A stretch of 64,000 nt of DNA from the NCBI GenBank assembly GCA_964016885.1, contig OZ024752.1:38812001-38876000 (forward strand). Reading direction: 5' to 3'. A program made the position numbers and the translations under genes. Origin of the DNA: Eledone cirrhosa (lineage: Eukaryota). The notes under the pieces were generated by a model, which made no database searches, had not been told where the DNA came from, and saw nothing but the letters and a program-made list of their open reading frames with translations. Positions 1,596-9,895 of this stretch are shown here, piece after piece. Numbering within the stretch: the stretch's first letter is position 1; every line of letters starts with the position of its first letter.

Positions 1596-1897
1596 CTACT
1601 CCAGCTGATGTGTCTCTGTTGATGCAGCTCGGTGTTGACGGAGTGTTTGTAGGCTCTGGTATCTTCAAAAGTAGTTTACCGAAGAAACGTGCTAAAGCAA
1701 TGGCACAAGCTGTGACCCACTACAATGAACCTTCAGTCCTTGCTGAATTGAGTGAGGATTTGGGTGAAGCTATGTTTGGAATCCCACATTCTGATCAACC
1801 ACAACATAAAAGACGCGAAGGACCAATAGGAGAGGAAGTGAAGATTTGGAATGCCACTCTAAGCAATCAAAATTCTTCAACTAAAATAAGCAGCTGA
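1596..1897 (+). CDS. PDX1: Terminal exon of pyridoxal 5'-phosphate synthase subunit PDX1/SNZ (PdxS); upstream exons lie outside the window
   Basis: Polypyrimidine + TTTCAG acceptor ends at 1595. Translation (A)[25 protein letters not shown]...[26 protein letters not shown] is the PdxS/SNZ C-terminal signature. Stop TGA at 1895-1897. Confidence 0.93.
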
Positions 1898-2048
1898 TGA
1901 CAATCCATAACTGCACAGGCTGATGAAACGGTCCTTTTTTATAATGACAATTTTTAACCCAAATCCTGAAATTCTCGACAAATATTTTATTTTTTCTATT
2001 TTTAAATTTGTTTTCCTGTCTCATTCTAATATTTGAAATTGTATATCA

Positions 2049-2054
2049 AATAAA
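2049..2054 (+). promoter_or_regulatory. Probable polyadenylation signal of PDX1
   Basis: AATAAA ~150 nt after the stop, followed by T-rich sequence. Confidence 0.5.
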
Positions 2055-2148
2055 AGATACTTTTAAGAAACATATTTTCTTTTAATATTTATTTTGAAGG
2101 GTACCTAGTGAGTTACATAGGGGAAGCAGGACTTCAATAGATCTGATT

Positions 2149-2850: not shown

Positions 2851-3264
2851 TGTTATATAAAAAAATGAATCAGGATGATTTAATAAAATTATTACCTTAA
2901 TATAGCTAATGGTATTTTATTAAATGATATATATTTAAATTTGAGATGTACATAAATAATGGTTTCTGATTTAGGCACAAAACCATACATAGGCCAAACT
3001 GTGTAGACGTATTTTCTTGGGGCTCTGCTAGAATCAGCAGCAACACACACTAACATGTGTTGCTACCCACACAAATATATATATATATATATGTATAACT
3101 GAACAAAAAAGAAAAATGAACAGAGACATATACATATATGTGTTCAAACCGTAAGGCACCAGATTCGCTAAGGTGAAAAGAATACTAACTATAGACAATG
3201 GGTTTGCCAGACTAAATTTAAGAATAAATCAAGAAAAATAAATACAAACCAGAATTGTGGTAAC

Positions 3265-3365
3265 TACCAATCACCCGGACAGCTTTGATAATACTGTTTC
3301 GCAATATTAATTGTGAAGAGGAATACCAAAATTCTAGCTCATCAGCGGATGAAGAATTATTAGTA
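3265..3365 (-). ncRNA. Type I hammerhead ribozyme (extended, GUC cleavage triplet), probably Penelope-like element derived
   Basis: Minus strand: TACTAAT-aattctt-CATCCG / CTGATGA / GC..stem II..GC / GAAA / CAG-loop-CTG / TC / CGGGTG-ATTGGTA. All core nucleotides are present and stems I and III pair. Confidence 0.8.
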
Positions 3366-3617
3366 TCCTGATCACTTCTAAGTATACTAAAAAACTGGAT
3401 AGTTTGTGTATATATAACGCATATGGTACCCGAACTTAGCGTGTCTCGCAAATTAACACTACCTTTTGTTCGTTTTTCTTTTGTTCAGTTATATTATACG
3501 GCTCGGAAAAACCTCTTTCCTAGAGCTAATTTTCTTGTAAGAGACTATTTTGAGTTTCTAACTCAATACATGCCTTTGATATATATATGTATGTATATAG
3601 TATACTAATATTATATT

Positions 3618-3950
3618 GTGGATTGGCAGTATCGGTAGAGGGTCGGACGCCATGCTTTCCAGCATAGTTACGTCCTTTTACGATCTGAGTTCAAATCCCG
3701 CCGAGGTTGACTTTGCCTTTCATCCTTACGGGGTCGATAAAATAAAGTACCAGTAATGTACTGGGTTATTGCTGGCCTTGTGCCAAAAGTAGAAACAATT
3801 ATATTATTAATGCGGTGAATTGGCAGTATCAGTAGAGGGTTGGACGCCATGCTTTCTACCATAGTTACGTCCCTTTATGGGTTCGATAAAATAAAGTACC
3901 AGTAATGTACGGGATAATTGCTGGCCTTGTGCCAAAAGTAGAAACAATTA
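3618..3950 (+). mobile_element. Two tandem tRNA-derived SINEs (family 1; second copy internally deleted)
   Basis: A-box-like TGGCAGTATCGGTAG and B-box GAGTTCAAATCC; central GCCTTTCATCCTTACGGGGTCGATAAAATAAAGTACCAG (resembles the Meta-SINE domain, from memory); tail GGCCTTGTGCC..AGAAAC(AAT)n. Confidence 0.85.
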
Positions 3951-4182
3951 TATTATTAATTGGAGCAAGTATAATCCTTTACAGACTATTTAGCCCAATG
4001 CAATAAGAGCCATTCGCGAATTATTAAACAAAATATTTCGCCATACGTAACTCAACATGTGAAGTCCATAAAGATATTGATCCTGATGTTGATGAAGGAA
4101 ATTTGCTTGCATCGGATACCAAACCAATATATACATACTCTACTGATACTGCGAAGCCACTGCTCTCAGATGTATATAAATA

Positions 4183-4733
4183 ATCGTTTCTAATTTAGGC
4201 ACAAGGCCAGCATTTTTTTTTTGGGGGGGGGGGGTCGATTAAATCGATCCCCAGTGCGTTACTGGTAATTTATTTTATCAACCTCATAAGGATGAAAGGC
4301 AAAGTTAACCTCAGCGGGATCTGAACCCAGAATGTAAAGGCCGGTAACTATATGCCGCAAAGCATGTTGTCCGACGCTCTACCGATTCTGCCAAACCACC
4401 AACCCACAGATGCACATAAATAATTGTTTCTACTTTTTGGCACAAGGCCAGCTATTAATCCCCAGTGTATTACTGGTACTTTATTTTATCGACCCCGTAA
4501 GGATGAAAGGCAAAGTTAACCTCGGCGGGATTTGAACTCAAAATGGCAAGGGCCGTAACTCAATGCGTCAAAGCATGGCGTCCGACCCTCTACCGATACT
4601 GCCAATTCACCGCCCACTGCACATAAATAATTGTTTCTAGTTTAGGCACAAGGCCAGGCAAGCAATTATCCAATACATTATTGATACTTTATTTTATCGA
4701 CCCTGTAAGGATGAAAGGCAAAGTTAACCTCGA
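4183..4733 (-). mobile_element. Three tandem family-1 SINEs (one partial)
   Basis: Reverse complement of the 3618-3800 element, at 4183-4405, 4421-4615 and 4630-4733. Confidence 0.85.
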
Positions 4734-4734
4734 C

Positions 4735-5260
4735 AATAATGACTGCTTATGTGTGTGTGTGTGTATGTATATATATATATATATATATATATACAAATAT
4801 AAATTATCGAGAATCGTATTTCGGCCCACGAAATAACGAAACACAATCTTCGAAAAGTGTGGCAAAGTGCTCAATAGTTTGGATAAACCAGAGCTATAAC
4901 TAACGTTTAAATACCAACACACTGAGATAATGCTTAAAATCATTCGCACAGCCGAAAAAACGACCAAGAAAATTCGGGTCAGACAAATAATAATATATAT
5001 GAATGAAAAAATATATATATAATGACTGCTTATGTGTGTATGTATATATATATATACAAATATAAATTATCGAGAATCGTATTTCGGCCAAAGAAATAAC
5101 GAAAAACAACCTCCGAGATGTGTGGCAAGTGCTCAATGATTCAGATGAACCAGAGCTACAACATACGTTAAAGGCCAAACACACTGAGACGATGGTTAAA
5201 CAATCATCCGCACAACCAAAAAAACGACCAAGTAATTCGGGTCAAATAAATAAAAAGAAT
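4735..5260. repeat. Diverged ~280-bp tandem duplication
   Basis: AATGACTGCTTATGTG...AAATTATCGAGAATCGTATTTCGGCC...AAAAAACGACCAAG..ATTCGGGTCA occurs twice (4735-5010, 5018-5260). Confidence 0.8.
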
Positions 5261-5625
5261 TGTGATTGAAAAATACATATATACATACATACACACACAC
5301 ACACAAATGATTTACATGTATGTAGTTATAATACATAGGGTCTCCGCACAAATATCGCCGCTGACCAAGAATAGGGAAATATAGAGAAAAAAAAATGGTA
5401 GAGAAAAAGAGGGGGGGGTGGCAAGAGCCCTGGTGTTGCAGAAGAGGGGGGGGGGGGGGTGATTGGGCAAGGGGGCATGAGTGCTGCGCCCCGCGAAGAA
5501 GACGACAAAAACATGCCCCCGGGCGATGGCCAGTGACACCTGCTGCAACAGCCACCCAACCTCGCGGGCCACCACCGACGCTCCGATCTTGCGGAGGAGC
5601 TCGGGATGAATTATAATAAAACGAA

Positions 5626-5806
5626 TAATTGTTTCTACGTTAGGCACAAGGCCAGCAATTACCCAGTGCATTACTGGTACTTTATTTTATCGACCCCGTA
5701 AGGATGAAAGGCAAAGTTAACCTCGGCGGGATTTGAACTCAGAATGGCAAGGGCCGTAACTCTATGCGTCAAAGCTTGGCGTCCGACCCTCTACCAATAC
5801 TGCCAA
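5626..5806 (-). mobile_element. Family-1 SINE
   Basis: Same head, central domain and tail as other copies; sits ~60 nt past the CEP44 stop. Confidence 0.85.
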
Positions 5807-5867
5807 AAAACGAATAATGTTTATATTTGTTACGATGAGATATAGTTGCAAATCAATACTGAATTAA

Positions 5868-7235
5868 TCACAGTTTTTCCAATTTAGATTCTAATGACTT
5901 AATAGCGCATTCCATTAAATTCATTTTGGCGAGGCAATAGTCCAATTCATTTTTGCAAGTATTATCTAATTTCACAGAAGGATGGAATAAACTTTCGTTG
6001 TTTGAGCTTTGTTCTTTTCTTGTGTGTTGTTGTTGATCAGTGACGGTGGTTTCTGTGTCTAATGACAACGCTGGTGGAAATTCTGGCGAATTCTTCTTCT
6101 CTTTGCCCAACAACATTCTAGAATCTAGTAGTCTTTCTTTTAGATTCTTCCGATGTAAATCCTGTAAAATCTCTGCAGATTTGACCAAAGTTTGTGAGAT
6201 GTTTTCCATTAAGGGTTCATAATTCATCTCTTTAGAAGAAGTTGAATTTTTACCTAACCTTGCATGTTTGTCGGCTCCGGTTGCAGTTAATGCGTATTTT
6301 GCGACTTTGGAAATTGTGCTAGAAACATCTTCGTGTTGTTCTCCAATGTAATTTGAAAAATGGTTTGAATTTTCAGTCCAGGCTATTAAAGGTTCAAAAG
6401 TGTTTTCTTTCTCTGGAAAAGGTCCTATTTGAACACTAACTGGAATTTTGTCAATGTTTGATTTCTGTTTTTCAAGAATTACATGACTCTTTGAATTTGG
6501 AGGTAATACAAACTGAGTAAATTGATAATTTCTTGGTATTCCTAAAGCAGAACAAGCATGGAATAATTTTTTGCCTAGATGAGGTTTTATAAAATTGTCA
6601 TTTTCCCTTTTGTTTTTAGATAAGGTGTTTTTAAAATTGTCTTTTGTGTTATGAGAGTGATACCTAGTGGCGCTTTGTTGGCTAGTAATGTGTGCATTGA
6701 TATCAAGATGCTGTAGAACAGAAGTAGGAGGATTTGGCATAGTAGAGTTAATAGGTTCTTCATTAGCAGAACTTATAACATTCCTATGGCGAGACACTTC
6801 GTTGGTATCAGATCTGTTGACTAGAGTTCGAGTCTTGCGGTGACCACTTCGACGTATCACAGAGGGATATGCTTTACATTTTTGTAGAACAACATCCAGA
6901 ATATTAGTACACATAATCATTTTCATCTCAATAAAAGCTCTGTTAGTCAGAAACATATGTTTTGTTATAGGAGGTTTATAACACAAAACATCTCGTACTA
7001 TACGATAGAGGTTGTCGACGAAATGTTTGTTAGTCTTACCGTAAAGTTGTAATCCTTTTTCAGCAATAACTTTACTAAATTCACAGTTAAAAGATGAAAA
7101 TACATAGCCATAAACAGCAAGGTAAATATCCAAAGTTCCGGCAAGAAAATCTGCCCTTTGATAATTTGAAAATTTTACTTGTTTCAGCTTGCTTTCAAGC
7201 TTACCGAGGTTATTAACAATATCGCCTGCCGACAT
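5868..7235 (-). CDS. CEP44: Centrosomal protein of 44 kDa (CEP44 domain, low-complexity middle, C-terminal coiled coil); 455 aa with no coding introns
   Basis: N-terminus MSAGDIVNNLGKLE...LYGKTNKHFVDNLYRIVRDVLCYKPPITKHMFL..AFIEMKMIMCTNILDVV resembles recalled vertebrate CEP44 (MATGDL...[43 protein letters not shown]); long intact ORF. Confidence 0.85.
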   Translation of the reverse strand: MSAGDIVNNLGKLESKLKQVKFSNYQRADFLAGTLDIYLAVYGYVFSSFNCEFSKVIAEKGLQLYGKTNKHFVDNLYRIVRDVLCYKPPITKHMFLTNRAFIEMKMIMCTNILDVVLQKCKAYPSVIRRSGHRKTRTLVNRSDTNEVSRHRNVISSANEEPINSTMPNPPTSVLQHLDINAHITSQQSATRYHSHNTKDNFKNTLSKNKRENDNFIKPHLGKKLFHACSALGIPRNYQFTQFVLPPNSKSHVILEKQKSNIDKIPVSVQIGPFPEKENTFEPLIAWTENSNHFSNYIGEQHEDVSSTISKVAKYALTATGADKHARLGKNSTSSKEMNYEPLMENISQTLVKSAEILQDLHRKNLKERLLDSRMLLGKEKKNSPEFPPALSLDTETTVTDQQQHTRKEQSSNNESLFHPSVKLDNTCKNELDYCLAKMNLMECAIKSLESKLEKL

Positions 7236-9737: not shown

Positions 9738-9895
9738 TCAACCCCAGTACTAAACTGGTACTTTTTTTATCGACCTCGAAAGGATGAAAGGCAAAGTTGA
9801 CCTCGGCGGGATTTGAAATAAGAGAGTAGAGAGTCGGAATGAATGCAGCAAAGCATTCTATCTGACATTCTGACAACTCTGCAATTTCACTGCCT
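9738..9895 (-). mobile_element. Family-1-related SINE
   Basis: CTGGTACTT..TTATCGACC.CGAAAGGATGAAAGGCAAAGTTGACCTCGGCGGGATTTGAA. Confidence 0.75.

Follow-up and report, generated by a model that had tools for sequence, protein, structure and literature searches.

The hammerhead ribozyme motif found in the window, the whole 64-kb stretch of DNA analysed here, very probably lies within an inserted copy of a non-LTR retrozyme that was copied into a (TA)n microsatellite by Penelope-like element (PLE) machinery, and it is likely a passenger at this locus. The motif sits within a ~510-bp non-coding dispersed repeat unit, and the arm layout, the two alternative 3' ends and the (TA)n target of the unit's insertions match the insertion and "tail" signature of PLEs.

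The hammerhead motif and its predicted fold

The motif has the CUGANGA...GAAA...UH core of a type I hammerhead and three helices, of which helix I is open. The first-pass annotation had read the core correctly: on the minus strand CUGAUGA occupies 3345-3339 (C3 is 3345), GAAA occupies 3300-3297 and the GUC triplet is present. The predicted cut falls at 3278/3277 because GUC places C17 at 3278. The parts of the motif are as follows.

3264..3365, minus strand: predicted type I hammerhead ribozyme motif, from descriptor, pairing and fold
3365-3346 and 3277-3264, minus strand: 5' and 3' strands of stem I
3338-3301, minus strand: long stem II
3297-3279, minus strand: stem III
3278, minus strand: C17

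The helices proposed earlier also hold. Stem III consists of five base pairs (A-U, C-G, A-U, G-C, U.G) and a 9-nt loop. For stem I, the minimum free energy (MFE) structure within the bounds first annotated has seven proximal pairs, a 7-nt bulge and six distal pairs, a register equivalent to the 6/7/7 pairing of the first-pass annotation. Stem II, described there as long, GC-closed and imperfect, is 38 nt long and begins with G-C and C-G pairs, followed by a U.U mismatch and an A-U pair. A structure descriptor gives one match on both strands of the 64-kb window and none in each of 40 Markov-shuffled windows. The comparison with Rfam that had been proposed as a check came out negative, with no hammerhead family matching the window motif at the gathering threshold or at E<=10; the 38-nt stem II is the likely cause of this miss. 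The archetypal loop I-loop II nucleotides are also absent from the mussel retrozyme hammerheads described in PMC7229834. Taken on its sequence features, the assignment to type I hammerheads is supported and self-cleavage is predicted.

The unconstrained MFE fold of the window motif does not leave the core open. In nearest-neighbour models, which omit core and tertiary contacts and are applied here with no active-ribozyme benchmark, the core-open fold of the window copy lies 9.2 kcal/mol above the ensemble within the bounds first annotated and 16.0 kcal/mol above it with 30-nt flanks, ranking 17th worst and 5th worst, respectively, among 54 members. With the 30-nt flanks, a 5' hairpin is predicted to sequester CUGAUGA. 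Most members have an MFE fold other than the hammerhead (whose median distance above the ensemble is 8.1 kcal/mol), the best sibling has a core-open fold only 1.9 kcal/mol above the ensemble, and GCAAG-type hammerheads, such as that at locus L042, are predicted to fold well. Compared with the family majority, the window copy is changed at 7 of 251 positions (2.8%), and two of these changes turn Watson-Crick pairs into wobbles, C to U in stem I and A to G in stem III. The window copy is thus predicted by these models to fold poorly into a hammerhead, and its chance of cleaving well in vitro is put slightly below even.

The repeat family and the anatomy of its insertions

The unit reference (510 bp, positions designated u) was cut from locus L006, with the core at u170 and C17 at u237. 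No LTR, PBS or ORF was seen in the unit, which has 36% GC, and an 88-aa frame across the ribozyme was rejected as coding since it has no Pfam match. The first-pass annotation had called for a count of genomic copies, and there are at least 165 motif matches: the descriptor GCTGATGAG-N20-50-CGAAAC-N8-22-GTCC has 165 matches in the genome and its reversed control has 0. A genome search with 3090-3500 (a 411-nt query) gives 68 matches at 40 scored loci of 2443 first-look candidates, the long matches being 90-95% identical over most of the query, and an exact 20-mer occurs 29 times in the genome. In the DNA-like runs X1 and X3 the summed contig depth over the element is ~2,000x single-copy depth, which is not a copy number.

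Twenty of the 100 descriptor matches listed (165 in total) were fetched, picked to span subfamilies. Fourteen belong to the same family (82-95% identity), and six (L031-L036) belong to related families whose stems differ from those of the window family while the long stem II is retained. These six loci represent at least three other families of repeats whose type I hammerheads have a long stem II, in inverted or tandem layouts in microsatellites. Examples of the related-family hammerheads are:

L032:4940-5040
L034:4935-5040
L035:4940-5045

The sequences of relatives back the helices. Among 53 distinct core-intact motifs, pre-selected for at least 4 of 6 stem I pairs and at least 3 of 4 stem III pairs and counted as sequences rather than as independent events, stem III pair 3 is A-U in 45 and G-C in 4, pair 4 is G-C in 47 and U-A in 4, and pair 5 is U-A in 42, A-U in 3 and C-G in 1, while stem I pair 5 is A-U in 49 and U-A in 2. 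Both sides change at stem III pairs 3-5 and at pairs 5 and 7 of stem I, and all 53 motifs have a standard pair 1 in stem II. When all differences in 36 arms are counted, the core is more conserved than the rest of the unit (7/504 versus 345/8532, Fisher p 0.001); when only copy-private changes are counted, the difference is not significant (5/504 versus 155/8532, p 0.22). Conservation of the core overall but not for private changes fits selection on source lineages rather than on individual copies.

Forty-nine loci were examined (L001-L050 without L019, a duplicate of L018), and the architecture was counted at the 44 that hold the unit, again without L019. In these counts, which are biased because loci were chosen by likeness to the ribozyme-bearing arm or by an intact core, arms lie on both strands at 34 of 44 loci, a u510-u1 tandem junction is present at 21, and two same-strand ribozymes 515-521 nt apart are present at three (L026, L039 and L040). 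Long tandem arrays, which described retrozymes typically form, were not seen at the loci examined, where no more than about 1.8 units follow one another in the same direction. The monomers from the three dimer loci are 515-521 nt long with 36% GC and fold as circles better than shuffled sequences do (z -3.3 to -4.7, 20 shuffles each).

The outward 3' ends fall mainly at two fixed sites ~84 nt apart. Of 74 such ends, 34 are at u415-430 and another 31 at u500-510; (TA)n adjoins 51 of the 65 fixed-site ends. Where a locus has two outward 3' ends (32 loci), 22 have one of each kind, one has both at u~426 and one has both at u510. At these loci, selected for ribozyme-bearing arms, none of 65 internal starts is a 5' truncation at the cleavage site (u233-243), where a linear cleaved template would make them accumulate. 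An uncleaved multimer predicts the same lack of a 5'-end pile-up, and a circle is therefore not established by it.

The insertion in the window (3094-3582) is made up of the following parts.

3075..3093: (TA)n target microsatellite, left flank
3094..3452, minus strand: left arm, u71-421, 93.6% identical to the L006 unit, carrying the ribozyme
3453..3466: junction of the two arms, with 1 genomic match at <=1 mismatch
3467..3582, plus strand: right arm, u393-510, 96.6% identical, with its outer 3' end at u510, the second fixed site
3499..3582, plus strand: ~84-nt segment between the fixed 3' ends, u427-510, a candidate equivalent of the PLE "tail"
3094..3122, plus strand: inverted repeat arm 1, u393-421 of the left arm, with its partner at 3467-3495
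3467..3495, plus strand: inverted repeat arm 2, u393-421 of the right arm
3577..3600: (TA)n/(TATG) target microsatellite, right flank, overlapping the ATAT end of the unit

The outer 3' end of the left arm is the first fixed site (u~421-426). The window copy itself is a monomer-type derivative with a single ribozyme and no ribozyme tandem, and the insertion is present in the DNA-like run X1 at single-copy depth. The inverted repeat that the first-pass annotation saw on either side of the ribozyme does exist (3094-3114/3473-3493 and 3107-3122/3467-3482), but it is not a boundary signal, being u393-421 as contained in both arms.

The link to Penelope-like elements

PLE insertions are described in PMC8557442 as partial tandems with an adjacent inverted 5'-truncated copy and an optional tail, with a bias to (TA)n in Neptune and Naiad. 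The protein of the anole PLE cuts and extends both strands, reverse transcription begins at two internal positions on either side of the tail, and cleavage by the ribozyme is unneeded in vitro, where unprocessed RNA predominates as substrate (PMC11167929). Metazoan retrozymes self-cleave from tandems and are circularised by RtcB, and PLEs have been proposed as their mobiliser (PMC7229834). In the available text of PMC7229834 and bioRxiv 10.64898/2026.07.22.740005, this PLE-driven mobilisation is proposed and undemonstrated.

The family combines features of a non-LTR retrozyme with the insertion signature of PLEs. It consists of a short non-coding unit with one type I hammerhead and without LTR or ORF, and tandems with at least two consecutive ribozymes occur in 3 of 44 loci; its insertions show the partial tandem, the inverted truncated arm, the two 3' ends that bracket a tail and the microsatellite target. 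It is not an autonomous PLE, there being no RT/GIY-YIG ORF collinear with the repeat, and no unit copy joined to such an ORF was found at the 49 loci within flanks of 1.5 kb (L001-L030) or ~5 kb (L031-L050). The Penelope link drawn by the first-pass annotation therefore stands as regards a type I hammerhead in a PLE-like setting, but not as regards a pLTR of a coding PLE, the carrier being a ~510-bp non-coding unit.

PLEs with a GIY-YIG domain (PF01541) are abundant in the genome (10,597 candidates, 150 scored), and several have open frames of 840-1096 aa. Most of 20 long-frame PLEs examined are followed by a microsatellite, usually (TA)n, and most have a CxxxxCxxC-type linker, by which they may be labelled Neptune-like in analogy with PMC8557442. 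No autonomous partner sharing the unit sequence was found in the 3' UTRs of 45 GIY-YIG loci of the 10,597 candidates, and the unit matches near these 45 loci are insertions of their own in neighbouring microsatellites. At L043 a Neptune-like PLE lies 1.9 kb upstream of a unit copy, but it was rejected as the partner, as microsatellites lie between the two and the PLE has its own 3' end. The unit-like matches by L053, L071, L080 and L093 (L080 and L093 judged by coordinates only) were also rejected, as they lie outside the PLE 3' UTR, either as separate insertions or upstream. The 3' UTRs of Neptune-like PLE families (L071:2185-2215, L080, L084, L091 and L043) contain minimal hammerhead-like motifs whose cores are variant, namely UUGAUAA...UGAAAC with a CCGG palindrome and CUGAAGA...UGAAAG with a GUAC palindrome. 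At L082 and L091, two opposite coding PLE copies lie within 8 kb with identical or near-identical ORF ends, which shows that the inverted layout occurs in autonomous elements too.

From the PLE-type ends, the (TA)n targets, the dimers and the circle folds, we infer a tandem transcript, double cleavage, probably a circle, and double-ended PLE priming. Partial head-to-tail tandems of the unit are present at many loci. Tandem transcripts would self-cleave twice to give a monomer of ~515-520 nt, as known retrozymes do, and a host RtcB-type ligase may then circularise it (PMC7229834). A PLE GIY-YIG/RT protein encoded elsewhere would nick both strands of a (TA)n tract, as suggested by the end pattern and by PMC11167929, and reverse transcription would start at two fixed internal RNA sites, u~426 and u510, one for each DNA end. 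The resulting insertions consist of two 5'-truncated arms that meet head to head, as at 3094-3582. With one ribozyme only, the window copy would be unable to release a monomer and would decay neutrally.

It is highly probable that the mobilisation is PLE-driven, while the odds are even between a circular and an uncleaved multimeric template. A more tentative proposal, which we hold with rather less than even confidence, is that the family is an RNA-circle parasite of PLEs, with a ~515-nt circle, double-ended priming and cDNAs joined head to head. If this is true, the genomic copies are a direct record of double-ended PLE priming on a circular template, the 84-nt tail is a cis-element recognised by the PLE enzyme, and several unrelated-looking, Rfam-invisible families with a long stem II share the cycle.

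The alternative that survives best, though it is unlikely, is that the unit is a detached pLTR or 3' end of an unlocated autonomous PLE and that the copies are its 5'-truncated products and solo pLTRs. PLE pLTRs do carry type I hammerheads and give like tandem and inverted layouts (PMC8557442), retrozymes are derived from pLTRs in a 2026 preprint (bioRxiv 10.64898/2026.07.22.740005), and the 45 GIY-YIG candidates inspected come from more than 10,000. Against this, u1 is preceded by u510 of its own unit at 21 of 44 loci and by ORF sequence at none, the PLEs examined have minimal hammerhead-like motifs of their own and unrelated 3' ends, and this ribozyme, full-sized and with five base pairs in stem III, is unlike the minimal PLE type.

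As a PLE-mobilised retrozyme, the family can be compared with three known systems. With metazoan non-LTR retrozymes it shares a small, non-coding, low-GC (36%) unit with one type I hammerhead, dispersed monomers and some two-ribozyme tandems, the absence of LTR, PBS and ORF, co-occurrence with PLEs, and a predicted monomer circle that is more self-paired than shuffles. It differs from them in its unit length of ~515-520 nt, against 170-400 nt in invertebrates (PMC7229834), in the lack of long arrays at the loci seen, in its 38-nt stem II, and in its two-armed (TA)n insertions with two fixed ends when set against the accounts in PMC7229834 and bioRxiv 10.64898/2026.07.22.740005; the range of 51-972 bp in the 2026 survey (bioRxiv 10.64898/2026.07.22.740005) includes the unit. 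Cephalopods have 0 occurrences in the text of that preprint, its supplementary tables (35 species) aside.

With EN+ PLEs (Neptune/Poseidon) the family shares partial tandems, an inverted 5'-truncated arm and two 3' ends bracketing a tail (PMC8557442, PMC11167929), as well as the (TA)n target and a type I hammerhead in the repeated part (PMC8557442). Unlike these PLEs, it has no RT/GIY-YIG ORF, its ribozyme is full-sized rather than minimal, its tail is ~84 nt rather than 30-40 bp, and its unit is common to none of the 45 local PLE 3' regions examined. Non-autonomous Chlamys elements such as MRC1 are likewise non-coding, pLTR-like dependants of PLEs with head-to-tail insertions, but they match autonomous partners at the 3' end and, as far as PMC8557442 describes them, mostly lack canonical hammerheads, whereas the unit here has a canonical hammerhead and no partner similarity was found for it.

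No prior description of the 510-bp family was found in the cephalopod and octopus hammerhead-PLE literature, which included few subscription papers, Repbase and Dfam being outside the scope. At the family level, the finding adds a retrozyme family, probably a cephalopod one, whose long-stem-II hammerhead escapes Rfam, and the two fixed ends 84 nt apart provide a concrete substrate for the proposed PLE-driven mobilisation of retrozymes.

Relation to CEP44 and neighbouring features

The genes next to the insertion, and the first polyadenylation-type signal between CEP44 and the ribozyme, are:

5868..7235, minus strand: CEP44, a single 455-aa ORF with a single genome copy (PF15007, E 1.5e-24), context only
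5681..5686, minus strand: AATAAA, the first of four between the CEP44 stop and the ribozyme
1598..2070, plus strand: final exon of a PdxS-like gene (PLP synthase), which converges with CEP44, context only

The CEP44 identification made earlier is confirmed by PF15007, and the stop lies 2,523 nt upstream of C3 on the same strand as the ribozyme. The first-pass annotation went on to suggest that the ribozyme could cleave extended CEP44 transcripts. As a co-opted regulator, it would cut transcripts that read through 2.5 kb at 3278 and so destabilise or terminate them, which is very improbable. The ribozyme lies on the CEP44 strand with an intact core, its insertion is in the DNA-like X1 at single-copy depth, and the RNA-like run X2 has a contig across the insertion junction at CEP44-like depth. 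But it is one of at least 165 motif matches and lies behind four AATAAA signals (minus-strand starts 5686, 4693, 4485 and 4274). Its intact core is expected without selection, the probability that all 14 core bases are intact by chance at 2.8% divergence being about 0.67, and the core is also intact in 29 of 36 sibling arms. The two wobble changes and the 5th-worst fold rank with flanks count against it as well. The CEP44-sense orientation is accidental because it is set by the ribozyme-bearing arm, while the other arm points the opposite way. Being one of so many motifs inside a PLE-type repeat, the ribozyme is therefore likely to be a passenger and not a dedicated CEP44 regulator, although cleavage of CEP44 read-through by it is possible.

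The RNA-seq check that had been proposed gives a partial answer. In X2, a 163-nt contig is identical across the unique junction (3370-3532) at a depth of 5.8, similar to that of the CEP44 contigs (2.2-6.4), but a contig gives neither strand nor ends, and the source of this one could be the arms of the element themselves, read-through of PdxS or carried-over DNA. No run with this sequence is on record as RNA; X2, whose kind is unrecorded, is judged RNA-like because its PdxS contig starts at an exon boundary and ends after an AATAAA, and with an RNA-like contig on the window junction, inertness of the copy is therefore not established. At 99% likeness, X2 contigs cover the unique sequence from the CEP44 stop to the ribozyme little or not at all (0 at 4015-4155 and 5284-5424), which is no proof either way. 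Run X5 has a junction contig with <31 nt on one side, which was left uncounted.

Domesticated hammerheads, such as those in the 3' UTR of mammalian CLEC2 and in an intron of amniote RECK (HH9), are low-copy and conserved across species. The window motif resembles them as an isolated type I-like or extended hammerhead within or downstream of a gene in sense orientation, but it belongs to a high-copy mobile family, of which it is a young copy (2.8% from the majority), and four AATAAA precede it. At the level of the locus the case is ordinary, a recent retroelement insertion that happens to fall 2.5 kb behind a gene.

The 27-29-bp inverted repeat around the ribozyme and the TA-rich flanks would also suit a DNA transposon of MITE type that has 27-bp inverted repeats as its bounds and a hammerhead present by chance or capture, but this reading has next to no probability and is rejected, because the repeat is an internal segment doubled by the two arms, with a length that varies from none to hundreds of bases between copies, the element runs 87 bp past the right repeat, and the copies are 5'-truncated and tandem in the style of retro-copies.

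Several other features of the region were observed. CEP44 is an uninterrupted ORF and the only genomic match to itself, and it may be a retrogene that took the place of a parent with introns. Its start region (7249-7126) recurs as a degraded 124-bp copy (81%) at 2801-2682 on the minus strand, ~290 bp past the ribozyme element. A very abundant SINE-like repeat, with several copies in the window (3605-3960, 4190-4735, 5590-5810 and 9760-9880), is the source of the AATAAA signals downstream of CEP44. The PdxS-like exon matches TIGR00343 (E 2.8e-26 over the C-terminal 71 aa), a pyridoxal 5'-phosphate synthase of the PdxS/SNZ type; it lies in a spliced-looking X2 contig of depth 62 that ends at 2070, 21 nt after the AATAAA at 2049. 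Genes for de novo vitamin B6 synthesis are patchy in animals. In the intron upstream of this exon there is a tandem array with a ~43-bp unit (420-1375), and related sequence is found in L035 and L042. Two tandem copies of a ~263-bp unit, 82% alike, lie between TA tracts at 4768-5283; this unit has dispersed relatives in L025, L026, L030 and L049 and no match to the type I descriptor, and it could be another PLE-dependent non-coding family.
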